Below, one piece after another: positions 18,074-36,938 of a DNA stretch of 64,000 nucleotides; the stretch's first letter is position 1, and every line of letters starts with the position of its first letter. The stretch covers positions 1-64,000 of IMG/VR virus record IMGVR_UViG_3300021168_000001; one strand, given 5' to 3'. The translations under genes were made by a program, and so were the position numbers. Below the pieces are notes generated by a model that was not told where the DNA came from, ran no database searches, and worked only from the letters and a program-made list of their open reading frames with translations. This DNA comes from a virus.

Positions 18074-18119
18074 TTCTTCCTCCTCTTTCGATTCTTCTGG
18101 TTTCCTGGACCCTCTTCCA

Positions 18120-18359
18120 TCAGGCCAGGTATCGTACGAAAAGCGCGCTCCCATTTGGAGGAGCGACGATGAAGACAATCGTTCTTCCAGTCCGGTTATA
18201 GTCGATGCCAGGAGTCTGAAATACACCATTTAGGTATACGACAACACTTCCTGGAATCGGTCCTTTAGAGATAGAGAATGATTGCTGAACCCCGTCGACA
18301 CCTGTTGGTGTTTCTTCCCTGCAAAAAATTGGGGCATACCAATTACCGGTTAGCGACAT
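18120..18359 (-). CDS. standalone small beta module (VYLNG..Q..G.DY)
   Basis: GAGG RBS; aligns with modules in three structural ORFs. Confidence 0.7.
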   Translation of the reverse strand: MSLTGNWYAPIFCREETPTGVDGVQQSFSISKGPIPGSVVVYLNGVFQTPGIDYNRTGRTIVFIVAPPNGSALFVRYLA

Positions 18360-18439
18360 GGTTTGTACCTCTCTCTCATTTGATAGATTGCAGGAATATA
18401 CAGCAGGGCGAAGGCAATGACCGTTAACATCTCAATTGC

Positions 18440-21109
18440 TCAAAATGCAACCGCTTGCCACGTGATTATGTCGCCGCTCACCGTAGTGCCAGCGATCGCG
18501 CAGGCCGTCGTGCTCGTGGTGGTCTGCACCATGTTGTTCGCGTCGGCTGCGGTAGTAAGGTCGGTTGCCGAGCACCGCCAACCATTCGGGGCGGTAAGAC
18601 CCGGTGTGATGGTCACAGTGCAGGTACCCGTCGTTCCGCTGGCGAACGATCCACCGGATGATCCTCCGACCGCCGCCGTCAGAGAGCACCCCGAGACGTT
18701 CTGCGACCCGCCCGCCACGATGTAGTTCGGCGTGACTTTGGTGGCTGTGACTTGGGGAGTGACGACCGCAGGCGTAAGCGCTTGCGTCGCTGGAAGAGTA
18801 GGGGCGCCAGTCAGCCCGTTGCCGGATGGATTGCTGCTGCGGTAGGTGTCGATGAACGCTGTCACGGCCGCAGGAGACGGAAAGACCGTGGACCCAAGGT
18901 GCGTGCCACCGGCAATCGTGGTAGCGGTGCAGGTCGGCCCTACCGCCGTGCAGAAGTTGGTCGTATCCGTAGGCGGGATAACGGTGTCGGAGCTGCCAAC
19001 GTACATCGAAATGGGGACCTTGGACGCGGTAAATACGGCTGTGTTCAGCGTCGGGTCATATGGCGCGAAGGCCGATGCGGGTCCAGCATATGCGGCTTGC
19101 ACTACCTTGTTCGGCGTGTAGGCGGTTCCAGCGGCGTAGGCTCCCGGCCAGATGTAGAGCGGGTCGTAATAGCCTAGCGCGGGCGCATTGAAGTAGCCAT
19201 TGATGGGTTGCCACGTGGTCGGGCTCGATGCTGGCGTCTGGCCTGTGCCGGGGAAGATGTTCACATAGGAAGGCCCGTAGGCCGCGTTGATGACCGTCGT
19301 CAGGCCAGCCTGATAACCTGCGCCGTCCGTCCATGCGCCGGTGAGGTTAACAGCGCCAGAAATGCACATAATCCCCGCAGATCCCTTATTGGCCATTTCA
19401 TAGCCCAAAGCGTTGAGGCATCCCATGGACATGCCAAAGTGGTACAGTTGCCACGTCGCGGGCAGCAATCTCCTGATCGTTCCAATCTGGTTATCTCTAT
19501 AGACCATTCCCGCAGGGTTGTTCCAGTTGCTTGAGGTCGGCCCTGAGTAATTATTCGCCCCCGACCCATCTCCGGTCATGACAGCCAGCAAGCAATTATC
19601 GGCCAAGACTGCAGAGTAGATCGTGTTGGCATTCACATATCCGAGCGCGGCCGGCGTCGCGTTCGCGTGCCAGATATTGAACAGGCATGTCTTGTTGCTC
19701 GATCCGTAGGTTCCCGGCACGGCGATTGCCGCTTCTTGAGACTGTGCGCTCGGCCCAGGCGTGTCGTTCAGGATCTTGGGCGCGAGCGACATAGGCGGGA
19801 GGAATAAGCCGTCAGTCGGTCCGTGCAACGCTCCGACCGAAGCGTATACGCCGATTACCTTGTTGGTTGCCGAGGTGACCTGGATCCTAACCTTTGAGAG
19901 ATTAGTGAACAGCGGAACCCCGCCGTTGGTGAACGTGGCTGGCTCCTCAAAGGTGTATACGAGGTTGTCGAATGCGGCCTGAAATGCAGGCCCGCTGCCA
20001 AACGTAGGGCCGAAACCTAAAACGTTGGCCGCTACCGGGAATCCGGAGGTCCACACATACTGCCCGTCGCTCTGGATGGTAAACCAGTAGCTCATGGGGT
20101 TGGTGATCCCGCCGCCAAACCCGTATTGGTTGTATTGCGACCCGCTGAACTGCCACCCGCCGCCGATCAGCGCCCCGTTGATGTTGTACTTGATCCCCTT
20201 GTGGAAGTCGTTCCCGGAATCGCTCACGATGACAGTGGCGTTGTTCGTGGTGTCGCCATTCACTTGCGTGAGGAAAGCTACGCGCCAAGGCTGAGCCGGG
20301 TTGATCACCTGCGGGAGATTGATGTCGCATGTCCCCTGCACGCCGTTGGTCGTTGCGACCAGGCCCCCGCCAGAAGCGTTGCTCAGATTCGAAACGGTAT
20401 TACAACTCGCCGTGGTGAGAGACGCGATATACAGGTCGTTCGTCGGCATCACGTAGTGCGTGGCGGGAGTGAGGGAATTATTGGTGATCCCCGAAGCAAT
20501 AGAGGCTATTGCCGCGAAATAATTTGTTCCATCAGACAACACCGTCATCGAAGTTGGAAGCGTAGCCGATCCTGCTGGAAGCGTGAGCGAACCGGATGCG
20601 CCATTGATATTTTGCCCACTCGGCGCAACGGTGACCACCCCGGACCCGTAATTTATGATGTTTATCTGCTGCTTTGCAGCCGGCTGCGATCCACTCGCCA
20701 CCAGCGTGATCGTGAAAGTCCCTGATCCTACCGTTATCGTCTTACACTGGGAAAAATCAGCGGCGACGACTTGGTAAGTCCCGGTCTGCGGATTAATAGC
20801 AGATCCAGCACTGAGTAAGATCGCACCGCTGGACCCGCCTCCAGTTAGGCATGCCCCAGCGGTGACGCCAGTTATCGTTCCGGCATTGCCATCCAATACC
20901 CATCCACCGGGAGTGCACGTATATGGCTTGTTGTTCGTGATGTCAGTGTAAGGCGCGCCATAATTCAGAGCCGTGCAACTCCCACCGCTCGGAGCGCCGG
21001 CGCCGGTACTCCTCGGCCAGTTTATCTGCACCGTTGGGTCGATCTTCGTTTGTCCATGGAGCATCACTGCAAACGCAATCAGACACAACACGCTGACAAT
21101 TCTTTTCAT
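18440..21109 (-). CDS. signal-peptide-bearing fibre/spike-like protein with an alpha/beta-hydrolase domain
   Basis: MKRIVSVLCLIAFAVMLHG-Q signal; G/T/S-rich beta regions; GMSMG, GSSDT, GGTH. Confidence 0.7.
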   Translation of the reverse strand: MKRIVSVLCLIAFAVMLHGQTKIDPTVQINWPRSTGAGAPSGGSCTALNYGAPYTDITNNKPYTCTPGGWVLDGNAGTITGVTAGACLTGGGSSGAILLSAGSAINPQTGTYQVVAADFSQCKTITVGSGTFTITLVASGSQPAAKQQINIINYGSGVVTVAPSGQNINGASGSLTLPAGSATLPTSMTVLSDGTNYFAAIASIASGITNNSLTPATHYVMPTNDLYIASLTTASCNTVSNLSNASGGGLVATTNGVQGTCDINLPQVINPAQPWRVAFLTQVNGDTTNNATVIVSDSGNDFHKGIKYNINGALIGGGWQFSGSQYNQYGFGGGITNPMSYWFTIQSDGQYVWTSGFPVAANVLGFGPTFGSGPAFQAAFDNLVYTFEEPATFTNGGVPLFTNLSKVRIQVTSATNKVIGVYASVGALHGPTDGLFLPPMSLAPKILNDTPGPSAQSQEAAIAVPGTYGSSNKTCLFNIWHANATPAALGYVNANTIYSAVLADNCLLAVMTGDGSGANNYSGPTSSNWNNPAGMVYRDNQIGTIRRLLPATWQLYHFGMSMGCLNALGYEMANKGSAGIMCISGAVNLTGAWTDGAGYQAGLTTVINAAYGPSYVNIFPGTGQTPASSPTTWQPINGYFNAPALGYYDPLYIWPGAYAAGTAYTPNKVVQAAYAGPASAFAPYDPTLNTAVFTASKVPISMYVGSSDTVIPPTDTTNFCTAVGPTCTATTIAGGTHLGSTVFPSPAAVTAFIDTYRSSNPSGNGLTGAPTLPATQALTPAVVTPQVTATKVTPNYIVAGGSQNVSGCSLTAAVGGSSGGSFASGTTGTCTVTITPGLTAPNGWRCSATDLTTAADANNMVQTTTSTTACAIAGTTVSGDIITWQAVAF

Positions 21110-21121
21110 TTTCCAAATCTC

Positions 21122-21517
21122 CTAGGAATGCAGGTAAACAGCAAAGACGGCTGCATCGGTCGCCACCGATGGTGAGAACGTTATAGTCTGTCCAGATATC
21201 GTGAAGTCTATTCCCGGTCTCTGAACGATTCCATTTACGGAAAGTATGAACATCAAAGCATTGGATTGAGATAGCGTATACGTAGTTCCAGGCACCGTCG
21301 CAGTCGGTTGCTCTGACACAGTCCCCGCTATGAGCGCTGCATTTATCAAGGACGAGGCATTTCCAGCGGTAAGCAGCGTTACGCTCAACGCAGGCACTGT
21401 AATGCTGCCTCCGAAAATCAGGTCCAACAGTCCCAGATCGAAATTCAGCGGAACCTGCCAGTTAGCCTGATTGAAGTCGGGGATCTGCAACCCGATATTG
21501 GGAGTCTGTGTTGGCAT
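21122..21517 (-). CDS. tail fibre adaptor-like protein
   Basis: TPNIGLQIP..W..LN..LD fibre-type N-terminus plus C-terminal NG..Q..G.DF module. Confidence 0.65.
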   Translation of the reverse strand: MPTQTPNIGLQIPDFNQANWQVPLNFDLGLLDLIFGGSITVPALSVTLLTAGNASSLINAALIAGTVSEQPTATVPGTTYTLSQSNALMFILSVNGIVQRPGIDFTISGQTITFSPSVATDAAVFAVYLHS

Positions 21518-21519
21518 CT

Positions 21520-22092
21520 TTAGCTCACCGTCATGGGCCCGAGGGGATGAAGTTTAAGGTCGGCCAGAGCCTTGAACTTTTGCATACTCGTGGCATTTGG
21601 AGTTGGATCTACCGTTCCGGGACTCAACACATACGATGGGAAGGCTACAGTCCTTCCACCCGTACCGTCCTGCGTGAACGCCAGTGTGATCTCCTGTCCA
21701 AAAGAAAAGCCAAAGATCCCGATCGCCGTTATATTTCCAGTCATCGATGGCACATGAAATCCATCGGCCACGGTCGCACTGAAAGATATGGATGGAGTGA
21801 ACGCGATGTTCTGCATGGGAGTGCGAAGGTCGGCTTGCGTAAGGATGTTGTTCAAAACGCTCGCGAGCGTACCCACGTTCACATCTGAAGTGCTGTATCC
21901 CTTGTTCTTCAGCATCAATGCGAATGCCGTTACAAACGCGTTCGCCTGCCTATATATTTTATTGAGCCACGCTGATGGAAGGATGTTGTTTGTCTGTATT
22001 CCTCCCGTTGTCAACGCATTCGAATCGTAAGTAGCATCGCTCTGCTGATTCGATTGAGTCGGGTTGAACTCCACAAAATTTGTTGTCGGCAT
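21520..22092 (-). CDS. short proximal tail fibre protein
   Basis: TNF..F, SAWLNKIYRQ baseplate-anchor-like motif; TQDGTGGRTV; follows the baseplate genes. Confidence 0.7.
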   Translation of the reverse strand: MPTTNFVEFNPTQSNQQSDATYDSNALTTGGIQTNNILPSAWLNKIYRQANAFVTAFALMLKNKGYSTSDVNVGTLASVLNNILTQADLRTPMQNIAFTPSISFSATVADGFHVPSMTGNITAIGIFGFSFGQEITLAFTQDGTGGRTVAFPSYVLSPGTVDPTPNATSMQKFKALADLKLHPLGPMTVS

Positions 22093-22105
22093 TTTCTTTC
22101 CTCAC

Positions 22106-22744
22106 CTATGCTGCGTGGCCCAGATCGGCGCCAGCGATGAAAGCGTTGTCGAGGTCAGCACCAAATATCGGCAGCACTGGATACAGGTAGGTGTAGAGAA
22201 CACCCTCTGGACGTGGAACGATCATGTCGTTGTTAATCATGTCTTGGATTATTGATGTGAAACTTCCGCTCAAAATGATGATCGCGGTCATGTCCTGCTG
22301 GTCAGCAATGATGATCTGACCGCCAGGGAATAGCGTCTGCCATATTCCATACAGGCTATCGATTGTTCCATCCCATTGGTTCTGAGCGATCTTGGACTTT
22401 ATGTAAATCCGGTACGTCGCATCATTCAGCACCGGGCTAACGCCCCCACTCGGCTGAAATGGAACTGTTCTCGAGGCTCCGGCGATCGCACCGAGCTGAT
22501 CGAGTTGCGCCCCGACAGCATCGTCGATGTCGATCGCCGTATCCAATTTGACAAGCACGCGACTGACATCGTCCAACTTAACGAGGATCGCATAGAGCAA
22601 TGCATTCAGCTTTGGCGATCTGCGGTATTGAGATGTGAGAAGCGCGATGTAGTAACCGAGGGGAAGATTCTCGATCGGCTGATTGCCATATCGCCCCAGC
22701 CCATATCCGCTTGTTCCATAGTGTGGATTTGGAATTGAGCTCAA
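22106..22744 (-). CDS. baseplate wedge protein (DUF2612-like)
   Basis: SQY..SP, DIDDAVGAQLD..G, LND..YR..I, WDGT, PRPEGV. Confidence 0.85.
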   Translation of the reverse strand: MSSIPNPHYGTSGYGLGRYGNQPIENLPLGYYIALLTSQYRRSPKLNALLYAILVKLDDVSRVLVKLDTAIDIDDAVGAQLDQLGAIAGASRTVPFQPSGGVSPVLNDATYRIYIKSKIAQNQWDGTIDSLYGIWQTLFPGGQIIIADQQDMTAIIILSGSFTSIIQDMINNDMIVPRPEGVLYTYLYPVLPIFGADLDNAFIAGADLGHAA

Positions 22745-24213
22745 AATTGCACCACCACCACATCCGCAGTTAGACCCTGTGCGGCGGAATAGAAATGAGG
22801 CATTGCAACGTCGTTTATCGGCGGTGTCGTCCCCGTGAAGAACACGGCATCATTTACGCCGGTGTTCTGATTGGCGACATTCGACATTGTGAGTGTGCTT
22901 CCTGAAATGCCAATTATCGTCGTACCTGGTGGGAACGGTGAAATGCCGTTGCCACCGTTAGACGGTGGCTGAGAACCGTAAAACGTCTGTCCTATCGATG
23001 GTGACGGTCCAAATTCCAGTGGCCCAAATACAGCCAAGTTGGATCCATTCGTGGCCGATAGTCCTCCGACCGTAAATTGCACCGTGCTTACAAACAAGAA
23101 TTGCACGCCGAATCTCGGCGCGGTCTGCTGCGCATTCAGCGCCATGATCGCGTAAATCAGAGCTCCGACAGATACCAGTTCTCCGATTTGCAAACTGTTC
23201 AAATAGGCCACAATCGCAGCCTGGATCGCAGTCAAAGTGGCAGTCGGAAGATTACTCGTATATCCAGTCACCACTGCATACACGAAGATAGGCGTATACG
23301 TCGGCCGATAGAAGCTCATGGTCTCGATGTTCCCTGTCACCGGGTCCGTTACAGATACGCTCGTTGTTCCATGCGTCAGGCATCCTATCGTCTTCTTCAA
23401 GTAGATTGCCAAACCAACGGCTGCATCGGCCCCGCCATCGGCGACGATCGAAATAGAATGAGCCGGATTCCCCCACGAGTCCGTCGCTCCTGTGGGATTC
23501 TCGATCGACGATCCAGGACCTCCGGGAGTCGGCAGAGGAGGAGCTACCCTGACTACTCCCGGCACTGCCAGAACAGCAGCTACCGTCGACGCAAGCGGCG
23601 TCAGCGCGGGCAGGGCAACCGAAATAGCCTGACGTCCACGCAATTCAGAATCGGTTTCAACCGGGTTACCAGCCCTAGCCGCCGCCGCATTGGTCACTGA
23701 AGTCCACCCAAGAACAGTCGACGATATGATCGCAATTTGCCCAGCCGAAGCAGGAACGGATCCTGGAGTCGTGCAGGTCGCGGTCACGTTGATAGTCCCG
23801 CCGCCCGGGATCACAGTCGGCGACGGAAGGGCCCACAGATTTCCGTTCGTGTCCTGCGCGAATCCATTTGTGATGGTTGTGCCAGCGACGCCGCCCACCG
23901 TCAGAACCGCAGTCGAAAATGTGTACGCCATCCTCGCCAAACCGTTCATCTTCACTACGCGGTCGAGGCCGGCACCAACAGCCGTCTGCGGCGAGCTCTG
24001 GTTGTAAGCAAATTGGACGGCCAGGTTCACATCCGAAATCTTCAGCGCGAAAATTGACAGCAATTGATAGATTGCCGAATCCGGAGCGACATACTGATTT
24101 TGCCCATAGATGTTCAAGAAAGAACTGAGTAGATCCTGGAAAATCGACTGGTACGTAGGAATTGTCAGCCCAGCGGGACCGATTGAAGGAGGTGCATAGG
24201 GCGGCGCGCTCAT
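22741..24213 (-). CDS. baseplate J-like protein
   Basis: P.TAVGAGLD, ETDSELR.R, ENPTG..D, HSI..V..GG, F.RP. Confidence 0.9.
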   Translation of the reverse strand: MSAPPYAPPSIGPAGLTIPTYQSIFQDLLSSFLNIYGQNQYVAPDSAIYQLLSIFALKISDVNLAVQFAYNQSSPQTAVGAGLDRVVKMNGLARMAYTFSTAVLTVGGVAGTTITNGFAQDTNGNLWALPSPTVIPGGGTINVTATCTTPGSVPASAGQIAIISSTVLGWTSVTNAAAARAGNPVETDSELRGRQAISVALPALTPLASTVAAVLAVPGVVRVAPPLPTPGGPGSSIENPTGATDSWGNPAHSISIVADGGADAAVGLAIYLKKTIGCLTHGTTSVSVTDPVTGNIETMSFYRPTYTPIFVYAVVTGYTSNLPTATLTAIQAAIVAYLNSLQIGELVSVGALIYAIMALNAQQTAPRFGVQFLFVSTVQFTVGGLSATNGSNLAVFGPLEFGPSPSIGQTFYGSQPPSNGGNGISPFPPGTTIIGISGSTLTMSNVANQNTGVNDAVFFTGTTPPINDVAMPHFYSAAQGLTADVVVVQF

Positions 24214-24228
24214 TGTTCTATGATCTCC

Positions 24229-24618
24229 TTATCCCAACGAAGCATTGATGCCGGGAACATTTGATACTGTCACCTGTCCGAATACTGTCTGCACAGTGCA
24301 TGTGAAAGTGAAAGCTCCTCCATTGAACGACGCATTCAGATCGACAATCGCTGTCACAAGCGGAGCCAGGCTTTCTATCTGTTGCTGCACCAACAGCTGC
24401 ATCGCCTGCAGCGATCGCTGTGTTTCCAACTGCCCGAGCATCGATTGAAAAACTGGCAAACCCAACGTCAGGTTTTCCCACCATTCGCCATAGAACAGAT
24501 TCAATCTTGTGAGGATCGCTTGCGCTACAGCATAGGTGTCGACAAGTGAGGACTGCGAATCGAATATCGGATCATAGCTCAAATCGAGAGCAATATAAGA
24601 AATCGTGGGGCTCGCCAT
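24229..24618 (-). CDS. baseplate wedge/sheath initiator (gp25-like)
   Basis: AVAQAILTRL.LFYGEWW...GLP, TVFG. Confidence 0.8.
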   Translation of the reverse strand: MASPTISYIALDLSYDPIFDSQSSLVDTYAVAQAILTRLNLFYGEWWENLTLGLPVFQSMLGQLETQRSLQAMQLLVQQQIESLAPLVTAIVDLNASFNGGAFTFTCTVQTVFGQVTVSNVPGINASLG

Positions 24619-24622
24619 CGGC

Positions 24623-25357
24623 TCATTGCCCTTTCAAAACGGAGGTTTCTGATCCTGTCGGAATTCCGGGCCCAGCGTATCCCTTGGAAACAAGAAAGGG
24701 CTGGATATTAGCTACGTACCACTGGTAAAACGTATCGTTCATCAAAGCCAGCGGCGTGCCTCCGGAGCTCTCGACATTTACGTGCGCGGCAGTCACTGTC
24801 ACTGCTGTCTCAGCGACGTCGATTATCGTGTTGCCATCATCACTTCGTATCTGCAACGAGGTCGTTGAATAGTTCGACAGTTTGTTGGGCTGGCTGAACA
24901 TTCCAGGGATGAATCCGCAGTCCCAGAAGTCGTGGCGAACAACCCCACACTGGATTTGCGATCCACTCGGCAACGATTGGCCAGGATCGAGGTTCTGCGC
25001 TCGTGGAGCATCGTTCTTTCCATTCAGCCACCAGAAATCAAAGCACGCATCACAAAACACCAGGAGGCCTTCATCTCCCTTCTTCAGCGGCAGGGTGACA
25101 CTGAATCCACCACCTCGAGGAATGACGATCGGCACTTTCTGGATCGGCGGAAGATCCCACCACTGAGCTCCGGCCGGGGTGCGGACTCGCTCTTGAATTG
25201 CGATCTGAACAGTGACCGTCTGATCAGCGGCTAGGTCTTCGGCAAGGAATGCAGGGATTGACACACGTAGCTCCGCGCCGTGCTGTCGCACGATCTGGCG
25301 GAACTGTTCTGCCTCTGAGTAATTGAGTTGAAATGGTGTGAGGCCGGCGGCCATCAT
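24623..25357 (-). CDS. baseplate spike (Gp138 N-terminal-like)
   Basis: VPIVIPRGGGF.VTLP...GDEGLLVF.D..D.WW, RH...D..FIPG. Confidence 0.85.
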   Translation of the reverse strand: MMAAGLTPFQLNYSEAEQFRQIVRQHGAELRVSIPAFLAEDLAADQTVTVQIAIQERVRTPAGAQWWDLPPIQKVPIVIPRGGGFSVTLPLKKGDEGLLVFCDACFDFWWLNGKNDAPRAQNLDPGQSLPSGSQIQCGVVRHDFWDCGFIPGMFSQPNKLSNYSTTSLQIRSDDGNTIIDVAETAVTVTAAHVNVESSGGTPLALMNDTFYQWYVANIQPFLVSKGYAGPGIPTGSETSVLKGQ

Positions 25358-26397
25358 CCCCCCGATTTAGCTGCAAAAATTCCATTGAGAAGCGAATCGG
25401 CATAGGTCGTAGACCAGCCTGTCACTTCTGTCTGCCAGTCGTTTCCTCGAGTGTCGCCAACATGCCGCACCTGTCCGACCAGAAAACTCAGGTTGTTTGA
25501 GAACGGAGTGAACATACCTGAGTTGGGATTAGGAAACACCGGCAGTTGCGATATCACTGTTTGCGTCAACTGCACCACCAGCGGCGGAAGCTGCACCTTC
25601 AACCGCGGATCGAGCAGCACCGTGAAGATGACTCCAGTCGGCGTCTGCCGAGGTGTCCCGATAATGCTTGCTGTTACTCCGTTCGGCACTGGGCTCCCAT
25701 CAACGGGCGGCGGCGAATAGATCAAGTCCGGAGTGTAGTCCGTCTTGGTCATCTCAGAAATGTAGGCCTTCGATCCATCCATGAAAGTGTTCATGAAATG
25801 CTCGTCGGCTATCTGTTGAAGGTATTTGGCCACACTTCCGAATGCTCCGCGTCCTCGCGGATATTGCGTCGAAGTGAGTGCGTCTTCAGCTTTAGGTCCG
25901 AGGTTTCCTCCGGCAGATTGAGTGAACTGCGGAAGGTTCACCTGTTTGGCCATGCGATTTACAAATTGCAACTGACTAGAATATGGTCCCATTCCAAAAC
26001 TTACGATCTCCGCGTTCAACAGTGGATTCGCGATGCAGCGTAGCACCACCCTCTGATCGACCACGCGGTCACGGTCATAAAGGACCTGGAACACAGGGCC
26101 ATCCCAGATTATCGAGTAGAAGTTTGGGCCCGTCTGGAAACCGGCCTTCAGCGTCGCCCACGTCGCGTTGAAGAGGATATTTTGGATCGAATCGTCATTG
26201 AGATTAAATATCGTGATGTCAGCCGACCAGTAGGGACTCCTCACCGTCCTCTGCCACACGTCGAATGTCATGCGCAGAGATTCAGGCTCCCATTTATCTC
26301 GAGTGATCGTATAGATTTGCGCATCGCCGTTGGAGGCAACATATTTTATTTCTAATTCCCACGCCTGCCCCCACAGGTTGATCGTCGACGAACTCAC
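25354..26397 (-). CDS. baseplate hub protein
   Basis: ADITIFNL, LKAG, IIWDG, IGTP, LLDP, H.GDTRGNDW; GTG start near 26397. Confidence 0.8.
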   Translation of the reverse strand: MSSSTINLWGQAWELEIKYVASNGDAQIYTITRDKWEPESLRMTFDVWQRTVRSPYWSADITIFNLNDDSIQNILFNATWATLKAGFQTGPNFYSIIWDGPVFQVLYDRDRVVDQRVVLRCIANPLLNAEIVSFGMGPYSSQLQFVNRMAKQVNLPQFTQSAGGNLGPKAEDALTSTQYPRGRGAFGSVAKYLQQIADEHFMNTFMDGSKAYISEMTKTDYTPDLIYSPPPVDGSPVPNGVTASIIGTPRQTPTGVIFTVLLDPRLKVQLPPLVVQLTQTVISQLPVFPNPNSGMFTPFSNNLSFLVGQVRHVGDTRGNDWQTEVTGWSTTYADSLLNGIFAAKSGG

Positions 26398-26732
26398 GGT
26401 GCGGTGTCTCCCCAAAGCAACGAAAACTGTGGCAAATTGTCGGGTCCAGGATAGTCAGTTTCCGCATTAGCTGTGTTCAGCAGGTAGGCGCTTCCGATTT
26501 TCAAATAACCATACTGGCTGAGCATATTTGCTGCAGGATACCAACCCGTGACCAGAGGTACGGAGGCGATCAAAAGGTTGGTGATCGCGTCGAATATCGC
26601 CATCTGCCAATAGCCAGCCATTTCCGAAAAACTCAGATCCAGATTCAACGTCAGCGCATTCCCGTCAACAATCAATTGCACCGAGAACGATTGATTTGGA
26701 GCCGAGGTCAACGGGATTATCTGGTTGCTCAT
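26394..26732 (-). CDS. baseplate plug-like protein
   Basis: IPL...PNQSF, PLVTG..N.L.QY.YL.IG. Confidence 0.75.
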   Translation of the reverse strand: MSNQIIPLTSAPNQSFSVQLIVDGNALTLNLDLSFSEMAGYWQMAIFDAITNLLIASVPLVTGWYPAANMLSQYGYLKIGSAYLLNTANAETDYPGPDNLPQFSLLWGDTAP

Positions 26733-27556: not shown

Positions 27557-27563
27557 AGCTCCC

Positions 27564-29207
27564 TCAGTAGCTGTAGCTCAGGCTCTGAAACTCGGATAGA
27601 TTACGCTGTACCTTGGAATCTGCGGCGTCCTTGATGGCGTCCTTCACAGCAGAGTGAATATCCTCTGGCTGGGCATTGGTTTTGCCGATGTTTATCGTCA
27701 CGCTGCCAATTTGCAGCGGACCGGATTTACCCATCGAAGACATCACCCGCGCGATCTCGTTGCGCGTTTCATTTGGCAGCGTAGCTTTTCCGGAAAGGAC
27801 CTTTTCCATCCCGCCAGGCCCCATGTTGTAAGCACCAACGGCGCCGGCATCACTTCCAAATTGAGATTGCAGATCGCGAAGGTAAAGCGCTCCGCCCATC
27901 AGATTGCTCATTGGATCGCGCGGATTCACCATGTACTTGGCGGCGATATCGGGGCTCAGCTGCATCAGTCCCATGTGCGGCACGCCCTTCGCCCACTGAT
28001 CAGGAACATTCTGATTGCCACTCGATTCCGCCATCATGACGCCGCGCAGGAGCTGCGGGCTGATGCCGGCAAGTCTGGCGACCTGTTCCACCATATCGCC
28101 GCCAGGACCGCCCGATCCACCGACGCCTGCGACCATTGCGCCGAATCCGCGCGCGACATTGTTAGGCCCTCCGATTTTTTGAAGGTTAGACGCGATCGAC
28201 ATTCCGCCCGCGGACCCTACTAACGCTCCACCGGGACCGCCGAATACCCCACCAACTATTCCACCGGCGATCATCCCAATCGACTGCGCTGTTACATCGT
28301 GCCAGGCGGAAGACAGTTCAGCGCCGGCCTCTTTGAATTTGCCACTCATCGCAAGGTCGAGAGCATTCAAAAGATGGCCGAGGAGCTTCTCGACATTTGC
28401 AATTGATTCCGCCCAGGTCGCGAATCCTTGTGCGACGTGATGTACAGCAGTCAGCATCTTGTCCAGGCTTAGGCTCGTCCCCTCGATCGATTCGTCGCCA
28501 CTGAGCAAGCCAACTACATTCGTAAATAGGATGGCGAACTGCCTTAGCGCATCGCCAGTCGCATAGGCGATGTCCTTGATGTCTTTCCAAATCGGCATGA
28601 ACTCGGTGACGATCCGGTGCGCTATCGCCGGCATGTCGCTTATCACCCAGTCGTTGAACTTTCGCAGCTTCTCAAGCAGTTCGTCCGGTCCCGTACCAAG
28701 CGCATGCAGGAAGTCCAACACTGTGTGCATGGCTAGATATTGCAATTCAACTTCCATGCGCGTGAATTCGAAACGGATGTCCCTCACCTTGCGCATCTGC
28801 AAATCGAAGTCGCCGCCAGGAGCCATCCGGCGCTGGTCCTCGATCAACCGCCTCGTACGGTCGCGCAGCTCCGCATCCCATGTGAGGTTCTCGAGCGGCT
28901 GCCCTAATGCGTCCATCGCTATCTTCAGCGAGCGCGCAGCGTCCTTTCCCATATACATGTGAAGAGCAAACAGCCGAAAATCTTGATCGGCCATGGCCAC
29001 CTTGTCGACCATTCCCAAGGCAGCAGCTCCGATTGAGGCGAAGCCTCCAACGATTGCCGTTTGCACTCCCAGAAATGATCCGGCCATCGATCCAGAGCGC
29101 TGCTCAACCATCCGTTCGGCATCGCGAAGAATCGCGGCAAAGCGGTGGTAAGAGGCGTTGTCCACGCCGAATCCTAAACGAACCAAATACTCATCGATGA
29201 ATGGCAT
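27564..29207 (-). CDS. tape measure protein with C-terminal lytic transglycosylase (SLT)
   Basis: EYLVRLGF.VD N-terminus, helical body, AESSG, GLMQL, AYNMG. Confidence 0.9.
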   Translation of the reverse strand: MPFIDEYLVRLGFGVDNASYHRFAAILRDAERMVEQRSGSMAGSFLGVQTAIVGGFASIGAAALGMVDKVAMADQDFRLFALHMYMGKDAARSLKIAMDALGQPLENLTWDAELRDRTRRLIEDQRRMAPGGDFDLQMRKVRDIRFEFTRMEVELQYLAMHTVLDFLHALGTGPDELLEKLRKFNDWVISDMPAIAHRIVTEFMPIWKDIKDIAYATGDALRQFAILFTNVVGLLSGDESIEGTSLSLDKMLTAVHHVAQGFATWAESIANVEKLLGHLLNALDLAMSGKFKEAGAELSSAWHDVTAQSIGMIAGGIVGGVFGGPGGALVGSAGGMSIASNLQKIGGPNNVARGFGAMVAGVGGSGGPGGDMVEQVARLAGISPQLLRGVMMAESSGNQNVPDQWAKGVPHMGLMQLSPDIAAKYMVNPRDPMSNLMGGALYLRDLQSQFGSDAGAVGAYNMGPGGMEKVLSGKATLPNETRNEIARVMSSMGKSGPLQIGSVTINIGKTNAQPEDIHSAVKDAIKDAADSKVQRNLSEFQSLSYSY

Positions 29208-29236
29208 ATCGGTCTGGGTTGTGCTATCGTCCTCTC

Positions 29237-30536: not shown

Positions 30537-30549
30537 TGAATCCTCGGGT

Positions 30550-31005
30550 TTAGCTGTTGTCGACGTCGGCGGCCATGAGGGACCACGTTACGCGTTGGCC
30601 CTGCGCCTGGTAGGGCTTATCAGGAACCTTCGTGAAACTGACCCCAGCGAGAATGTGGGTTGACCCATCGAGGAGGGTGCGGAAAGAGATGATGGTCGCA
30701 GCCCATCCAGAAATGTCATCGGCATTGGCCGCAGTCTCGAGCAGATTATAGAGCGCCAGCATCTCGTGATGCAGCAACGATGTTTGCTGTATCTCTATTG
30801 ACACTGCTCCGTTGCGCCCGGCGATGTAGGACGGCATCACCGTTCCATCTGAACCCACGTCATGAGAGGTGCGTTCAGTCGCCATCGTTATCGTGATCGA
30901 ACCATTGCCGATGTTTCCGCCAGTGAGCGGAATTGTCGTTCCGGCAACGGTGTTTACGAGAACGCCGACCAGGTCTTTGAACGAATAGGTTGTGCTGATT
31001 CCCAT
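30550..31005 (-). CDS. tail tube protein (DUF3277-like)
   Basis: TYSFKD, VGSDG, G.VSI...QTS, K.PD..Y, W; follows the sheath. Confidence 0.85.
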   Translation of the reverse strand: MGISTTYSFKDLVGVLVNTVAGTTIPLTGGNIGNGSITITMATERTSHDVGSDGTVMPSYIAGRNGAVSIEIQQTSLLHHEMLALYNLLETAANADDISGWAATIISFRTLLDGSTHILAGVSFTKVPDKPYQAQGQRVTWSLMAADVDNS

Positions 31006-31021
31006 TGTGTCCTCTCAAAAG

Positions 31022-32422
31022 TTACAGCTGGGTGTAGACACCAATCACCAGGCTCAAGGTCGCCCCTGAGGTGATGATGAAAACGTAGAGTGGCATCGCT
31101 CTTCCGGCCGCGCGATCGGAATCCAGTTGCTGCGAATAAGGCTGCGCAAGAACCAGATATCCAAGCGGAATGGCTTGCCCGTTCGTGACCTGCACTCCAG
31201 GAATATTGAAGGACAGACCCTCCCAGGTACCTCCCGACAAGAACCCAATCGTCGCCAACAGCGCACAGGCCTGCTGCGCAGCCTGAATGAGAAGATGCTC
31301 ACCGGCATTGGTTTGCGGAACAGCCGGCGTGCTTTGCAACACATTCATCTCGTTGATCTGCATGTTGTTGACGAGGATTGCCAGATAGAGCCAGAGATAG
31401 GACGGAGCTCCATTTGACATGATGCCCGGTTCGTAAAGTTTGAACGGCGCGAAATTGCAGTACACATTCCCACCGGCAGACTTGATGTTCGTGAATTGCG
31501 TCTCGGTCAACTGCTCCGGCGCGACTCCCGGCAACACCTTGTGCGCGCTGGTGAAGAAGCTGTTTGCCAGACCGGTCTGGAGTCCCATCTCTACACCCAT
31601 GACCGCGGCGGCAGCATAGACGTTGTTTGGGAACAAACCTCCCTGATTCGTCGCGTAAGTCATCAGCACGCGCAGCGCGAGGGTCTGGATTTGGAGGAAT
31701 AGATTGTTCGCCGTGCCTGCCGGGATCGCGGCATCGTTCGACCACCCGTAGTAGCGGGTACTCATCCAAAGTGGATCGGCCCATTCAGCGAGCGCGAGAT
31801 TATCGGCATCGACCGGGTTGCACACCATGACACCGTAAAATGCATTGCTCGCAATCCGGCATGCTTCCGTGGCTTGCAGCAGGCTCTCACCGATCGCAGT
31901 GATGTCAACTTGCAGCCCGGTTCCCGTGCCGCCAGTAGTGCTCAGGCTGGCCGCAACCGAATAGCCGGTTCCTTGACCGCCAATGATATTGGCCACCAGT
32001 GCTGTGACAGCTCCTCCTGTAACGGCCGTCACCGTCGCCTGTCCGTGCGAGGCGCCACCCTGGACAATATTCACGATGTCGCCGACGACATATCCAGTGC
32101 CACCAGCTCCTGAATGCGGGATCAGCGATTGGATGGCGGTCAGGTCCTGACGACCGATCCATACAAAGGCAGCAGCCGGCGTCGGCGAGAAATATAGTTG
32201 CGCGGAAATTAATTCCGGATCGGTATTCAGAAACCCATCGCTCTGCATCGCCGTCGTGCTGGCATACTTGCGCAGCCGCGCGTTGGCTCCATAGGAAGGG
32301 ATGTGCGTGCTCGACCCGACAATGAGCCCCTGATTGAACGAATTAGCCGAGGCCGCGCTGGGAGCCACTTGAACAGTGAGATCGACAATGTCTTGAAGCG
32401 ATAGAGGAGGCGTAGTGCTCAT
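31022..32422 (-). CDS. contractile tail sheath (DUF3383-like) with inserted beta domain
   Basis: LSL.DIV, DGF...PE...A..YFS..P....IGR, K.L.GV, N.Y, G.M.NG, PQT..G, DR..R. Confidence 0.85.
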   Translation of the reverse strand: MSTTPPLSLQDIVDLTVQVAPSAASANSFNQGLIVGSSTHIPSYGANARLRKYASTTAMQSDGFLNTDPELISAQLYFSPTPAAAFVWIGRQDLTAIQSLIPHSGAGGTGYVVGDIVNIVQGGASHGQATVTAVTGGAVTALVANIIGGQGTGYSVAASLSTTGGTGTGLQVDITAIGESLLQATEACRIASNAFYGVMVCNPVDADNLALAEWADPLWMSTRYYGWSNDAAIPAGTANNLFLQIQTLALRVLMTYATNQGGLFPNNVYAAAAVMGVEMGLQTGLANSFFTSAHKVLPGVAPEQLTETQFTNIKSAGGNVYCNFAPFKLYEPGIMSNGAPSYLWLYLAILVNNMQINEMNVLQSTPAVPQTNAGEHLLIQAAQQACALLATIGFLSGGTWEGLSFNIPGVQVTNGQAIPLGYLVLAQPYSQQLDSDRAAGRAMPLYVFIITSGATLSLVIGVYTQL

Positions 32423-32436
32423 AGATTCGTTTGCTC

Positions 32437-33060
32437 CTAGCTTGAAATGGTTACGTCGGCTTGTTCGCCGTCCTTGTCGTACACCTTCACCTCGACGCTG
32501 GTAACGATGCCATCGTTGATGGTTTCGGCAATCTGTTCATACATCTCAACGTGGAAGTCGGCACGGTCCCACCACTGGGCATTGCGCTCCTCTTTCATCC
32601 TGGTCGGCTCCGGAGCGTCGGGTACTGGAAACAGATTCTGCAGCGCCAGTTGATCGCTAAAGTAGTCGACGAATAAAACAGCAGTATTTACCATCCGCGC
32701 GCGATCGATGCAGTTCGGCCCATAAAACGTCCAAGCGATCTCCCAGGCTCTGGTGTACAACCAGTTCTCAGTGAGGATCTTGACAGGAGGAGATCCGGAT
32801 GTGCTCTGCGTCAACTGTCTATCGCGTACCTGCGAATATGGATTGTGATGAGTCGTGCACTTCAAATAACAGATGTCGGCCTCGATGTCCTGAAATGGCT
32901 GCCCCTCTTCAGGCCAATCTAGTCGCACCATGAATGGATTATCTGGAACAATTCCCAGCATTCCGCACGTCAACGACTGCATCAATTTATCGATTGCATT
33001 TTGCGTCAGCGCCGAACTTATCAGTTGCTGCCCACTCGGGTATTTAGCTGTCGTTGTCAT
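32437..33060 (-). CDS. neck/tail terminator protein
   Basis: VR..W...GQP, TFYGPN, E...QWW.R.D; position upstream of the sheath. Confidence 0.75.
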   Translation of the reverse strand: MTTTAKYPSGQQLISSALTQNAIDKLMQSLTCGMLGIVPDNPFMVRLDWPEEGQPFQDIEADICYLKCTTHHNPYSQVRDRQLTQSTSGSPPVKILTENWLYTRAWEIAWTFYGPNCIDRARMVNTAVLFVDYFSDQLALQNLFPVPDAPEPTRMKEERNAQWWDRADFHVEMYEQIAETINDGIVTSVEVKVYDKDGEQADVTISS

Positions 33061-33647
33061 GTCGCATTCATCCGCGTGCCGATAGCTTTGAAGTATCCAC
33101 TTCCCGGATAGTGCTTTACTGCCAGCACGCGATACTGTTCGCCCTTCGGTGGGTACACAATGATGTCAGCTGCATTGATTCCAACTTGCTGAATCGCCGG
33201 CCACGTCACATATAAGGGATCTTTGGCCGTAAACATCAAAGTTACCGTCTGACCGCTGATCGTGTAATCAACTCCTGGCTCTTGTAGAAGACCGTCGTAA
33301 AACAAATTGATATTTCCATTCGGAGGAAGCGACGAAAGGACAAACACACTACCGGGTAGCGTTCCTTCCGGAACCTCTCCATGCGTCGTCAGCACCGGTG
33401 CTTTGCCACGTGTCGTGAATATCGGTTGCGTAGCCCAGAATGCAAACAGTTGCGACAGGCGGTCGGCTTCAGGAACCATTTGCGCGTCGAGATCCGTCGC
33501 CGGCTGCACTGGCCCCACATCTGGAATCTCTATCTTCTGATCCGTGAAACCTCCAGCCACAAATTCAGCCTGGATCGATCGAAGAATAGTGAATGGCTGC
33601 GGCGCCTGTAAGTCTACGTCCGCTACGACTTCAGATACGTCGATCAT
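33057..33647 (-). CDS. head closure protein with inserted beta module
   Basis: IDVSEVV.D.D, VQPA...D...VPE.DR, D.I.Y....YRV....Y...GY. Confidence 0.7.
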   Translation of the reverse strand: MIDVSEVVADVDLQAPQPFTILRSIQAEFVAGGFTDQKIEIPDVGPVQPATDLDAQMVPEADRLSQLFAFWATQPIFTTRGKAPVLTTHGEVPEGTLPGSVFVLSSLPPNGNINLFYDGLLQEPGVDYTISGQTVTLMFTAKDPLYVTWPAIQQVGINAADIIVYPPKGEQYRVLAVKHYPGSGYFKAIGTRMNAT

Positions 33648-33648
33648 T

Positions 33649-34146
33649 CTAATTCCCCAGCGCGATAAAGAATGCGGACGCTCCCGCTCCGTTCGCCAGG
33701 ATCGTGCATTGACTTCTGCTCACAACCGTCGTTCCCATGGTGCGAGGGTTACCGGAGGTCGCAAAAGAGCTGTTGTCATTCGCGACGACACCAAAACACT
33801 GGGTCGGGAAAGCGGGCGAAAAGTTTACGGTGGTTGGTGTGTTATTCCCAAGCCCAGAAGCAGTTCCCCATTGGATCATGAATCCGCCAAGCCATTGCGG
33901 AAGCTGGAAATATCCGTTCGCTCCAAAGGAAAAGGCGAGCCCGAACTTGGCCCAGAAAGTATTGACGATGGCCGTGCTACTGTCTCCTTGCGACACGGAC
34001 GGGCCATTCATGCTACTGGTGGCTGTGAATTCAGCGCACTGCAAATTCGAAATGTTGCCCGTCGCTGGCGGCGTTGTCCCGCCTATCGTCACACCATCAA
34101 AAGAAGAATCACCGACGATCGCAACGCTCCGCAATTTGGTGGTCAT
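33649..34146 (-). CDS. short fibre-tip protein (gp53-like C-terminal domain)
   Basis: GDSST.I.NT.W, NGY..LP..GG..IQWG, F..AFP..CF, FIALG; start at MTTKLR with AGGA RBS. Confidence 0.75.
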   Translation of the reverse strand: MTTKLRSVAIVGDSSFDGVTIGGTTPPATGNISNLQCAEFTATSSMNGPSVSQGDSSTAIVNTFWAKFGLAFSFGANGYFQLPQWLGGFMIQWGTASGLGNNTPTTVNFSPAFPTQCFGVVANDNSSFATSGNPRTMGTTVVSRSQCTILANGAGASAFFIALGN

Positions 34147-34189
34147 TTCAGTCCTTTCGAGATGCCAACGATCGCGTTGCGAACACAAG

Positions 34190-34840
34190 TCACATCACGA
34201 ATAGCATCCCTATTCTTCGTGCCCACTCTGTCTCATCACGATCATACTTTTCAAGGTTGTGACGCCGACAAAGTAACTGCAAGTTCCAGATTCCGTCTGA
34301 CCCGCCCTTGGATAAGGGCGTTACATGGTCGATGTGGTACTTGTTCTTTCCCTTTGAAGCTATTTTGTAGATACATCCAGGAACCGCGCACTTATGCTTC
34401 TGTCGCTCCCACAACGCCTCGACCTCGGCAACGGTATGGTGCTCATCCGACCCAGCTTTACGTGCACGCCTGATCCGCGCATTGAGCTTGTGCTGCTCTC
34501 TATTCTCATTTCTCCATCGACGTTGCTTATCGAGCCGGGCCTGATGGTCTCGTTCGTAGCGATGCTTGGCGTTTTCAGATAGCCTCTCGCGGTTGGCTTG
34601 GTTCCAGGCACTCTGGCGGCGAGTAATCGATTCCCTGTTTCTCTTTGCTCGATCTTTCGCTTGTGCAGCAATCGTCGCGGCGTTCCTACGGCGATATTCC
34701 TTGTCACTTTCTGACTTGCGCGCTTTGTTCTCTTTTCTCCACGCGCGCTGATATTCGAGATTCTTCTCGCGATTAAGCACGTACCAGTCATGGTACTTTT
34801 CGGCACGCGTTCTCTTGTCGGATAGAATTCGCTCAGGCAT
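34190..34840 (-). CDS. HNH homing endonuclease
   Basis: Basic N-terminal repeats, RRARK, Q..KC..C, HIDHVTPLSKGG...NLQLLC..HN..K. Confidence 0.88.
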   Translation of the reverse strand: MPERILSDKRTRAEKYHDWYVLNREKNLEYQRAWRKENKARKSESDKEYRRRNAATIAAQAKDRAKRNRESITRRQSAWNQANRERLSENAKHRYERDHQARLDKQRRWRNENREQHKLNARIRRARKAGSDEHHTVAEVEALWERQKHKCAVPGCIYKIASKGKNKYHIDHVTPLSKGGSDGIWNLQLLCRRHNLEKYDRDETEWARRIGMLFVM

Positions 34841-34904
34841 CCTCGATCTCCAATCCAGATCGGATGTTCAGGCTCGCTGGGATGTATCAGCATCCCAGTG
34901 AGCC
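34838..34904 (-). promoter_or_regulatory. tandem hairpins upstream of, and overlapping, the HNH start
   Basis: 14-bp stem at 34871-34904; CATCCGATC pairs with GATCGAGGATG, which contains the ATG. Confidence 0.55.
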
Positions 34905-34917
34905 GCTGAAACCAAGT

Positions 34918-35487
34918 TTAATCCTTGCTCACGATACCCACAATCGCAGATCTCAAGATTCCCATATCGATTAGCGGGCGGTCCGATCCTTTCCTTTTGA
35001 TGGTCTCCGGCTTGTTAGCTGGCCATCCGTTCCGAGGGTCAACGAACCAGCGCCTGGCAGCATTCTGCCCGGCCAGGGCTGCACGTTGCAGCCGCCTTTC
35101 CGCTCCCGCCTGGTCTCCGGCCAATGCTAGCTTTCCAGTCTCGGCAAGCTCGTGAGCGATCGCCTGACGATTTCCATCGGCCATCACAGCGGGTTCCACA
35201 ATCGGACGCGCTGGCAATCTTCTGATCGGCGATCCCTTCGAATGGAGGAACAGCAATTCAGCATTGTTGACGCCTCTTTTTGACTGACTGATCGCCCGTT
35301 CCCGCTTCGACTTAGCTTTTGCGGAGCTTCCCGCGGTGGCTCCGGCGATTGCCAGCAGCGAAGACTGCCGGGAACTCTTATCGGCCGGCACGCCAACATA
35401 GGCCGCCATCTTCTGCATGTTCACGACGGCTTTATAGAAGGACTTTTGATTGCTTTTGCGCGCAACCGTGATCTTGGGTCCCATCAT
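34918..35487 (-). CDS. neck/tail-completion (virion morphogenesis) protein
   Basis: VGVP, NNA.L..LH..GSP...PARP, N.P.TI.RKG...PLID.G.LR.AI. Confidence 0.8.
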   Translation of the reverse strand: MMGPKITVARKSNQKSFYKAVVNMQKMAAYVGVPADKSSRQSSLLAIAGATAGSSAKAKSKRERAISQSKRGVNNAELLFLHSKGSPIRRLPARPIVEPAVMADGNRQAIAHELAETGKLALAGDQAGAERRLQRAALAGQNAARRWFVDPRNGWPANKPETIKRKGSDRPLIDMGILRSAIVGIVSKD

Positions 35488-35490
35488 GAT

Positions 35491-35655
35491 TCAATCCAGT
35501 CGCGCTGCCTGTTGATAGTGGGTCTTCAGGTTGTTCAGCTTATCTTGAATTGCTGCGCCTTGCGTTCCCTGAGTGTGCAGTTCCTGAAGACATCCAATCA
35601 CCTCGCCCAACAATTCGAAGATGTCTTCGAGGTGCTCTTTCAACCTTGGATCCAT
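35491..35655 (-). CDS. small hypothetical protein (54 aa, below the ORF-track cutoff)
   Basis: AAAGGA RBS; MDPRLKEHLEDIFELL...; fills the gap exactly. Confidence 0.6.
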   Translation of the reverse strand: MDPRLKEHLEDIFELLGEVIGCLQELHTQGTQGAAIQDKLNNLKTHYQQAARLD

Positions 35656-35667
35656 CGTGGTTTCCTT

Positions 35668-35961
35668 TCAAACTCTCACCCATTTTCCGTTCTGAACAAA
35701 CCCATGGTCTGCGCAGTGACAAAGGAACGACGGCACCAGCGTCGGCGCTTCTGGTGTTCCGCTCAACTGCCACACATGGTGCATAGTTCCACAGGCTTCG
35801 TTATAGCGATTATCCGTCCAGAAACTTCCGGCGCATAATCCCGTTTCACTCGTTGATCTCGTGTGGTGAATGATGCCGCCGCATCGCTGACCCTGGAACT
35901 CAGTCCATCGAATCCAGTGACCATCTCCGAGATCGACATCGAAACGTTCCGGAATCACCAT
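35668..35961 (-). CDS. small Zn-binding protein (DUF6527-like)
   Basis: W...G....PTL.PS...C..HG.V.NG.W. Confidence 0.65.
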   Translation of the reverse strand: MVIPERFDVDLGDGHWIRWTEFQGQRCGGIIHHTRSTSETGLCAGSFWTDNRYNEACGTMHHVWQLSGTPEAPTLVPSFLCHCADHGFVQNGKWVRV

Positions 35962-36938
35962 ATGAGCGCGGGCCCCGATCCGATCACTCGCGCCATGTCC
36001 GCCAACTGCTGGCCATAGATAGTCAAATTGAACTGGCCCCAGTCCTCTAATGCGACAAGAGGCGTGAAGCTCTCACTGACATCACCGACGCTCTTCGAAA
36101 CCTGAATACCATTGGCGATGCCCTGTGCGGCGAGCTGCGCGGCATTCGGATATCCAGTGCTCTGCACTGCGATCTGCGTTGTCCAGGTAGCGCGTAACTT
36201 GTCGCCTGTTTGAACAGTGGTCGCCATCGTTATGGTGGCGCCGTTTAGCACATAGTCTGCGCCGACACCGGGCGTCTGGAATGCGCCATTCCAAAACAGG
36301 TCAATGATTCCTCCAGGTGGAATCATACTCAGCATGAAGACTGTTGCCGGCAGGCCTCCTGTCGGAACCGGTACCTCACCATGCAGCGCGGCCTGAAGGA
36401 TCGTCGTTACTTTTGAGGCTGACTTCGCGAACAGCGTGCAATAGTGCGCCACAAACCATGAGATCGCGATAAACCAGGCATCCTGCCATCGTGCCTGCAC
36501 CAGCGAAGCAACCGCGAGGTTGATGTAGATCTGGATCACTGTCGTTGGTATCGGCGGCGTCTCGTAGACCGTCAGCGGAATGTTCGACTGCGTGGCTGTG
36601 GCCTGATTTGAAACGGTTATCTGGTTATTGCCGATTGCCGTGATCACTGTGCCCTTCGGCAGCCCAGCAGCCTGCAAAAACTGATTGATGGATAGGCCTG
36701 ATGTGCTCGGCACGGTGACCGTCTGCGATCCGTTCGTGGTCCCGGCTCCTGGAACCAGCGTAGGAGCTCCGAAAAAGTTCGGATATATGCTCAGAAAGTC
36801 ATCGAGGTAGTAAGGCGGATTCTGTCCGAATACGAAGTTTATTGCGACTGGGAACCCTGGCGTCCCGCCCACTTCCCAACTCCATCCCCAACACTCATTG
36901 ACGAATTGGTTGAAGTCGGGCCATCGCATAGTTCCCAT
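35955..36938 (-). CDS. head-tail adaptor (DUF4054-like) with two inserted domains
   Basis: DF...YP.F, RW, W.......FVAHY, SKSVGDVS.S, WG..N.T.YGQQ. Confidence 0.8.
   Translation of the reverse strand: MGTMRWPDFNQFVNECWGWSWEVGGTPGFPVAINFVFGQNPPYYLDDFLSIYPNFFGAPTLVPGAGTTNGSQTVTVPSTSGLSINQFLQAAGLPKGTVITAIGNNQITVSNQATATQSNIPLTVYETPPIPTTVIQIYINLAVASLVQARWQDAWFIAISWFVAHYCTLFAKSASKVTTILQAALHGEVPVPTGGLPATVFMLSMIPPGGIIDLFWNGAFQTPGVGADYVLNGATITMATTVQTGDKLRATWTTQIAVQSTGYPNAAQLAAQGIANGIQVSKSVGDVSESFTPLVALEDWGQFNLTIYGQQLADMARVIGSGPALIW

Follow-up and report, generated by a model that had tools for sequence, protein, structure and literature searches.

A recurrent beta-sandwich module in a putative fiber adapter and two neck proteins of an uncultured contractile-tailed phage

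INTRODUCTION

In phage CBA120, two segments of TSP4 (residues 185-250 and 262-333) correspond to XD2 and XD3. Both are jellyrolls like those of T4 gp10 and serve, as experiments have shown, as docking sites for TSP2 and TSP1 (PMC8825819). Here we describe a module of ~65 residues that resembles these domains. It is encoded in a 64,000-nucleotide stretch of DNA (the window) that forms the first 64 kb of IMGVR_UViG_3300021168_000001, a complete virus record of 103,269 bp with direct terminal repeats. In the window the module occurs as a stand-alone protein (P0001), at the C terminus of a candidate fiber adapter (P0002), and inside two neck proteins (P0003 and P0004). Like domains D2 and D3 of T4 gp10 and the XD2 and XD3 domains of CBA120 TSP4 and TSP2, it is predicted to be a beta-sandwich of ~60 to 70 residues, with a sequence motif in common (PMC8825819). 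As in those systems, it is found in a protein that would be attached to the baseplate and that is encoded just before or beside a fiber gene. The arrangement nevertheless differs from that of CBA120, in which XD1, XD2, and XD3 stand in tandem on a large spike, whereas here a single copy is carried by a protein of 131 amino acids (aa) and further copies lie in two neck proteins and one stand-alone protein.

A second group of systems combines an anchor with a branching domain, and the pairing of branching domain and conserved peptide has been validated (PMC6872550, PMC13352976). K1-5 gp37, G7C gp66/gp63.1, and KP32 RBP1/RBP2 resemble our locus in that anchor and branching domain lie on one protein, a likeness that holds for P0002 only and not for the neck copies. 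The next protein in these systems is, as here, an exchangeable, enzyme-bearing fiber of which only an N-terminal stretch is conserved, and they too have truncated adapters without the enzymatic part. They differ in that the docked candidates described here start with Sec-type signal peptides, with the conserved stretch at the predicted cleavage site, and in that the phage here is contractile-tailed and docking is predicted from genes. The N-terminal domain of T7 gp17 (Pfam Phage_T7_tail) is similar to the module in fold; however, the copies in the window fall below the Pfam threshold, and the T7 domain is a plug that docks the fiber on the tail rather than a platform for another fiber.

Immunoglobulin (Ig)-like decoration domains (Big_2, I-set, and FN3) are carried by Hoc, pb10, and tail-tube proteins. 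Ig-like domains of virions have been tabulated (PMC10713586). Like the module, they are small beta-sandwiches that structural proteins carry as accessories in differing numbers, but they belong to a different sequence family, and the nearest solved relatives of the module are docking domains. The insertion of a small beta domain into the middle of a neck protein also has a parallel, in domain DII of the T5/DT57C head-completion protein (PMC10713586). In that case the host protein has no detectable sequence relation to P0003 or P0004, DII contacts the portal, and the insertion described here is absent from some orthologues.

RESULTS

Translations of the window contain one homologous segment of ~65 residues in each of four proteins, all encoded on the minus strand. 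P0001 (18120-18359, 79 aa) is the stand-alone copy, with the module at residues 11-79 (18123-18329), and P0002 (21122-21517, 131 aa) carries the module at residues 65-131 (21125-21325), behind a putative anchor formed by residues 1-60. In P0003 (33057-33647, 196 aa), a head-closure-type neck protein (phrog_939), the module spans residues ~84-157 (33177-33398); in P0004 (35955-36938, 327 aa), a DUF4054 head-tail adaptor, it spans residues ~182-259 (36162-36395), inside the DUF4054 core. Pairwise identity among the four copies is 32-46% (32-64 bits, BLASTP), and the neck copies in P0003 and P0004 are each other's closest relatives at 46% identity. Ten positions are invariant in the four-copy alignment (E, P, S, G, Q, P, G, D, G, and T). 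An initial annotation of the window had located four copies at these places and proposed a consensus; all four are recovered by translation, BLASTP, and a hidden Markov model (HMM), and the consensus fits the ten invariant positions. When the HMM of the four copies was run against six-frame translations of the window and the complete genome, a fifth copy was not found. P0001 scores 107 bits with this HMM and has a GAGAGG-like ribosome site upstream. Stand-alone module open reading frames (ORFs) like P0001 are also present in the related loci L058/L059 and the related genomes G004 and G008. The ORFs in the first two (L058:6389-6598 and L059:6389-6622; 70-78 aa) lie between the adapter and the fiber gene, which is the opposite side of the fiber relative to P0001.

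The neck copies had been described as internal insertions, and orthologues that lack the module bear this out. Head-closure orthologues of ~120 aa align with P0003 on both sides of the module but are without residues ~84-160 (alignment A6), and the DUF4054 orthologues L161, L176, and L183 are without residues ~182-258 of P0004, the missing stretch sitting between the conserved blocks HYCTL and SKSVGDVS (alignment A9). P0004 itself matches Pfam DUF4054 (PF13262) at 49.8 bits against a cutoff of 23.9 (E = 4e-13), in two stretches that flank the module. Across its orthologues the number of modules is 0, 1, 3, or 4, with the extra copies at a second insertion point (alignment A8). Other searches with these proteins were less informative. 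A word-index search returned no relatives of P0001, a tblastn comparison of 50,697 cultured-phage records with P0003 and P0004 yielded no useful match, and a PDB sequence search with P0003, P0004, and the fiber-like protein P0005 (see below) gave no informative host-fold match.

The module belongs to a large family. Among 1.84 billion cluster representatives, 9,558 proteins match the module profile at an E value of <=0.001. These proteins range from 79 to 4,696 aa, and many carry 2-26 tandem copies. The module is found fused to DUF4054 proteins, a six-copy gp25-like wedge protein, a Phage-tail_3 protein, collagen-like fibers, P2 gpI-like baseplate proteins, and a DUF2460-type distal tail (Dit-like) protein. 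Single copies fall below every Pfam threshold, the best match of the window copies being DUF2460 at 14 bits against a cutoff of 30.4. The nearest Pfam families, by weak or summed matches, are CBM_X2, DUF4183, Phage_T7_tail, and DUF2460. Tandem-array relatives reach summed Pfam scores above the cutoffs without any single passing stretch, and they show summed weak matches to positions 13-75 of PF03906. Pfam searches with the module copies gave no match to Big_2, I-set, or FN3.

In the AlphaFold2 prediction, the module is a complete sandwich of eight beta-strands, including the N- and C-terminal edge strands (predicted local distance difference test score [pLDDT], 86.7), and the module within the P0002 model takes the same fold (pLDDT, 80-92). 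The module is probably an autonomous sandwich of ~65 residues, of one kind with XD2/XD3 and with units of the T7 gp17 N-terminal type, that phages move between virion proteins with varying copy number. Foldseek alone gave no match to it at an E value of <=0.001, and VIA-align returned a coherent set of fold matches at Z scores of 7.0-7.6. Among these are TSP4 XD2 (residues 185-250; Z = 7.4; root mean square deviation [rmsd], 2.6 Å over 64 residues) and TSP4 XD3 (residues 262-333; Z = 7.4 over 66 residues). The set also includes residues 4-79 of T7 gp17 (Z = 7.0), other podophage fiber N termini, and residues 44-110 of the DT57C/T5 head-completion protein (Z = 7.4; rmsd, 2.2 Å over 64 residues). 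In hhalign comparisons, a profile built from 38 modules (A7) aligned with TSP4 XD2 at residues ~200-247 (probability, 74%; E = 3e-5) and with TSP2 XD2 at residues 31-82 (probability, 64%; E = 6e-5), and both alignments fall on a common motif, NG..Q.P..[YF]...G.T[IL]. The same profile matched a Klebsiella-phage K1 depolymerase (PDB 9k4a, residues 118-172; E = 5e-7) and the P-SCSP1u fiber (E = 3e-6) in the PDB. Fold and profile agree, and with moderate strength they suggest, in comparisons with the XD domains of CBA120 TSP4 and TSP2, that the module is a domain of the XD2/XD3 kind.

Orthologues of P0002 were found in 41 viral contigs. Residues 1-50 are the most conserved part of the protein, with 74% mean identity across 20 adapter sequences. 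The N-terminal 60 residues are predicted to be unfolded as a monomer (pLDDT, about 50; AlphaFold2), and a protein-atlas look-up of this putative anchor gave T4_gp9_10_N and Gp10_C as leads, all below 0.9. The gene that follows P0002 encodes P0005 (18440-21109, minus strand), a fiber-like protein of 889 aa with a Sec-type signal peptide; as the initial annotation had pointed out, two module copies flank this secreted fiber gene, P0002 upstream and P0001 downstream. We counted adapter-fiber synteny in the 39 P0002-type loci with at least 200 nucleotides (nt) of downstream sequence. In 32 of the 39, the very next gene encodes a signal-peptide protein with the conserved motif described below, the motif being strict in 25 loci and a close variant behind a signal peptide in 7. 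At one further locus (L028), a signal peptide is likewise present in the next gene product, whose mature start differs. Across 20 adapter-fiber pairs, fiber residues 26-80 co-vary with the adapter linker and with the module (r = 0.57 and 0.33, respectively; Mantel p <= 0.0004 for both), and with the anchor at an r of only 0.19. A 1:1 complex prediction of P0002 (A4) with the mature N-terminal 80 residues of the fiber (A5) scored 0.00, a result that speaks neither for nor against binding.

P0002 ends in a TAG stop codon that overlaps the AGGAG site, and the P0005 ATG follows four codons later in the same reading frame (21109-21124, minus strand). A single gene expressed by in-frame TAG read-through was considered and rejected, because AGGAG and ATG follow the stop and give P0005 its own ribosome site and start, because all stops are used, and because orthologous pairs overlap in different frames. 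All three stops (TGA, TAA, and TAG) end genes in this genome, which shows that it uses the standard genetic code. The shared frame is probably a coincidence of sequence, and a rare P0002-P0005 read-through fusion may occur.

P0005 begins with its signal peptide (MKRIVSVLCLIAFAVMLHG, with predicted cleavage before Q), after which come the conserved motif and an N-terminal domain with two cysteines; it also has a weak alpha/beta-hydrolase match. A second signal-peptide fiber-like protein, of 986 aa (54421-57381, minus strand), adjoins the terminase gene and has a weak K1-lyase_C match at its C terminus. Both proteins contain the I-[DN]-P-x-x-Q-[IV] motif that the initial annotation had ascribed to them, and they have only the N-terminal domain in common (38% identity over 76 aa). 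P0005 and the 986-aa protein are the sole large fiber-like proteins of the complete genome and therefore are the fibers, if the phage has any. The fiber family comprises tens of viral loci. Its signal peptides have a basic n-region, a hydrophobic core of 10-18 residues, and an A-x-A-like site, then Q. Right after the signal peptide comes the motif Q-x-x-[IV]-[DN]-P-x-x-Q-[IV]-x-W, and its I-[DN]-P start lies three residues past the predicted signal-peptidase site in nearly all fibers. The first ~25 residues of the mature fibers are conserved and are followed by two unrelated types of N-terminal domain and by many different bodies (A5).

Word-index searches with residues 1-80 of P0005 returned no relatives, and the fiber N-terminal domain was found in none of the 185,579 species genomes scanned, which gave no clue to the host. 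The titles and abstracts returned by a literature search contained no precedent for Sec-exported tail fibers, and signal peptides on the sole fiber candidates are a real oddity. One fiber gene (L015:9674-10276) encodes an extra domain of ~55 residues between the signal peptide and the conserved motif. Judged by eye, this domain is similar to carbohydrate-binding motifs of the CBM5/12 type. Ahead of the conserved motif is the remnant of a second cleavage site.

We followed modules and fibers across 10 close relatives with capsid identities of at least 64% and across three distant phages. Among the close relatives, the module is present in the DUF4054 adaptor of all 10, in the head-closure protein of 8, and in a P0002-type adapter of 8. 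Six relatives, including the three complete ones, have a module at each of these sites; sites without one occur in fragments of 46-60% completeness. A signal-peptide fiber was found in 8 of the 10, and modules co-occur with it in every one of the 8; the three distant phages have neither modules nor signal-peptide fibers. The co-occurrence that the initial annotation had proposed as a check is therefore seen in this sample, where it is confounded by shared ancestry. Outside the neck, the number of modules equals the number of fibers in four of five genomes.

At the neck, the pattern is one of constancy. Across about 47 related loci, one module in each of the two neck proteins is the rule, with no fiber gene nearby, and in each of the complete relatives G002, G003, and G004 the two neck modules are retained alongside a single signal-peptide fiber, which is encoded at the baseplate. 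In another relative, G007, holin and endolysin genes come immediately after the baseplate adapter, which has no fiber gene beside it. The only signal-peptide fiber found in G007 lies upstream of the capsid gene, on the same side as the terminase-proximal fiber of the window, an arrangement that suggests that the terminase-proximal fiber serves the baseplate rather than the neck. A different picture is given by the fragment G001 (L005:4397-15844, IMGVR_UViG_3300029922_000252), in which a three-module DUF4054 adaptor and a 193-aa gene are followed by three consecutive signal-peptide fibers. This is the only locus found with such fibers inside the neck gene cluster.

The genes described above belong to a structural block of contractile-tail type that occupies the minus strand between 15 and 60 kb. 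Also on this strand are the terminase (58057-59391), a portal fusion (43627-46893), the major capsid protein (38110-39177), a Neck1/tail-completion protein (34918-35487), the sheath (31022-32422), a tape measure protein with a lytic domain (27564-29207), and the hub and wedge genes (22106-26415). An HNH endonuclease (34190-34840, minus strand) and a 179-aa protein (33649-34188) lie among the neck genes, and the C-terminal half of the latter matches tail-fiber C termini in PHROGs. Many relatives have too little space between their DUF4054 and head-closure genes to accommodate this pair, which may represent a mobile cassette or a small fiber of the neck.

Downstream of the fiber gene, in the region 17016-18229 (minus strand), a 160-aa ORF overlaps P0001. 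Its most likely start is an internal Met at ~18073, and the ORF from there, downstream of P0001, encodes a three-helix, holin-like membrane protein. The gene that follows (17016-17693) encodes a lipoprotein-type signal (…LLLLFAGC…). With holin-like and lipoprotein genes downstream of P0001, a lysis cassette directly follows the fiber cassette. A further ORF (15737-17164, minus strand), which matches no family, encodes ten consecutive histidines.

DISCUSSION

Taken together, we consider it moderately probable that the module is a platform of the XD2/XD3 kind, that P0002 is a baseplate adapter holding the fiber encoded by the adjacent gene, and that the neck copies form a collar. This reading builds on the observed repeat and its insertions, the size of the family, the resemblance in fold and profile, and the conserved adapter-fiber gene pair. 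P0002 would most likely be a small baseplate adapter, anchored to the baseplate by its conserved N-terminal ~60 residues. Its C-terminal module, probably as a trimer, would then present a face on which the neighboring fiber docks through its conserved N-terminal region. P0001 would probably provide one more copy of this platform, in free form, and move together with the fiber cassette. The neck copies would be loop insertions that project outward, as a collar, from the stacked adaptor and head-closure rings. For these copies, buttressing or decorating the neck, or contacting each other, seems likelier than holding fibers; we prefer a role in a collar, in buttressing, or in decoration over that of a fiber socket because the neck modules are constant whatever the number of fibers. 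The docking idea put forward in the initial annotation is thus partly supported, and only for the P0002 copy, for which it is backed by the XD2/XD3-like fold and profile and by the 32 of 39 gene pairs; it finds no support as a proposal for display at the neck or for the capture of exported fibers.

Several observations weigh against the adapter-and-collar reading. An hmmsearch of the PDB reached 7rfv only at an E value of 0.34, Z scores of ~7 can be reached by a common small sandwich, and the hhalign probabilities are moderate. Co-variation and synteny between adapter and fiber can both stem from linkage and shared ancestry. The genome of G004 carries a fourth module but only one fiber, and a comparable insertion in T5-like phages is in contact with the portal (PMC10713586). 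Lastly, the fibers have textbook Sec signal peptides and P0002 has none; therefore, P0002 and its fiber would meet only after lysis or by another route.

Some of the same evidence can be read differently. A family of this size, with arrays of up to 26 copies and proteins of up to 4,696 aa, could consist of generic surface decorations, that is, Ig-like accessory domains that are shown on neck and baseplate and provide weak, nonspecific adhesion to polysaccharides or particle stability without a dedicated partner. The weak summed matches to CBM_X2 and DUF4183 are consistent with such a role, the range of 0 to 4 copies among orthologues implies that the module is dispensable, and the neck copy number is independent of fiber number. 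Yet the closest solved relatives by both profile and fold are fiber docking domains, the adapter-fiber gene pair is tightly conserved, and P0002 consists of little beyond anchor and module. We give decoration a minor, although real, chance of being correct. The neck insertions could instead act as a structural clamp or homotypic collar, binding the neighboring ring or each other while P0001 caps or bridges them, and so stiffen the head-tail joint. Here the precedent is DII of the DT57C/T5 head-completion protein (residues 44-111), a small beta-barrel that matches the module at a Z score of 7.4 and contacts the portal clip. Moreover, the two neck copies are closest to each other (46% identity), and in CBA120 the XD2 domain of TSP2 is needed for TSP2-TSP4 binding, for which an XD2-XD2 contact has been proposed (PMC8825819). 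Related phages have orthologues free of the insertion, however, which implies that a clamp is not essential, and we regard this explanation as unlikely.

The model of the initial annotation, in which the modules capture the N-terminal strand of exported fibers and display them at both neck and baseplate, appears very improbable to us. It would account for a motif that starts three residues past the predicted cleavage site in nearly all fibers, for the co-occurrence of modules and fibers in the clade, and for the G001 locus, where a three-module adaptor precedes three signal-peptide fibers in the neck cluster. Strand complementation is nevertheless at odds with the predicted structure: both alone and within P0002, the module is modeled as a complete eight-strand sandwich with its two edge strands in place, and the incomplete, grooved Ig fold of the chaperone-usher type is not seen (AlphaFold2 prediction only). 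Nor does the motif always provide a free N-terminal donor strand, given that in L015 it is internal, behind a signal peptide and the extra domain of ~55 residues. A module family of 9,558 clusters is far wider than a fiber family of tens of viral loci, which argues against a dedicated fiber socket. Display at the neck fits poorly with the presence of one copy in each neck protein in ~47 loci, even though G002, G003, and G004 have one baseplate-encoded fiber each, and the terminase-proximal fiber of G007 suggests service at the baseplate.

The signal peptides also leave room for a scenario in which the sole receptor-binding fibers of the phage are exported by Sec, fold outside the cytoplasm, and snap onto XD-type platforms of completed particles, on the baseplate adapter and perhaps on the neck collar, only at lysis. 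The conserved cysteines of the fibers would suit folding outside the cytoplasm. We view this scenario as improbable, but if it were true, a phage with a contractile tail would be arming itself once the cell has lysed. More generally, if the signal-peptide proteins are parts of the virion, then fiber attachment must occur outside the cytoplasm.

Relative to the systems described previously, the new elements are a single-module mini-adapter in a large contractile-tailed phage, the clade-wide conservation of this module as an insertion in two neck proteins, and adapter partners that bear Sec signal peptides. A large family of virion domains that Pfam misses (9,558 clusters) thereby gains a name and a likely role, and the series of orthologues with 0, 1, 3, and 4 modules maps where neck proteins accept the insertion of a domain. 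If P0002 is the adapter that we propose, the principle of anchor, branching domain, and docking peptide known from coliphages and Klebsiella phages would also hold for a clade of large, uncultured phages with contractile tails.

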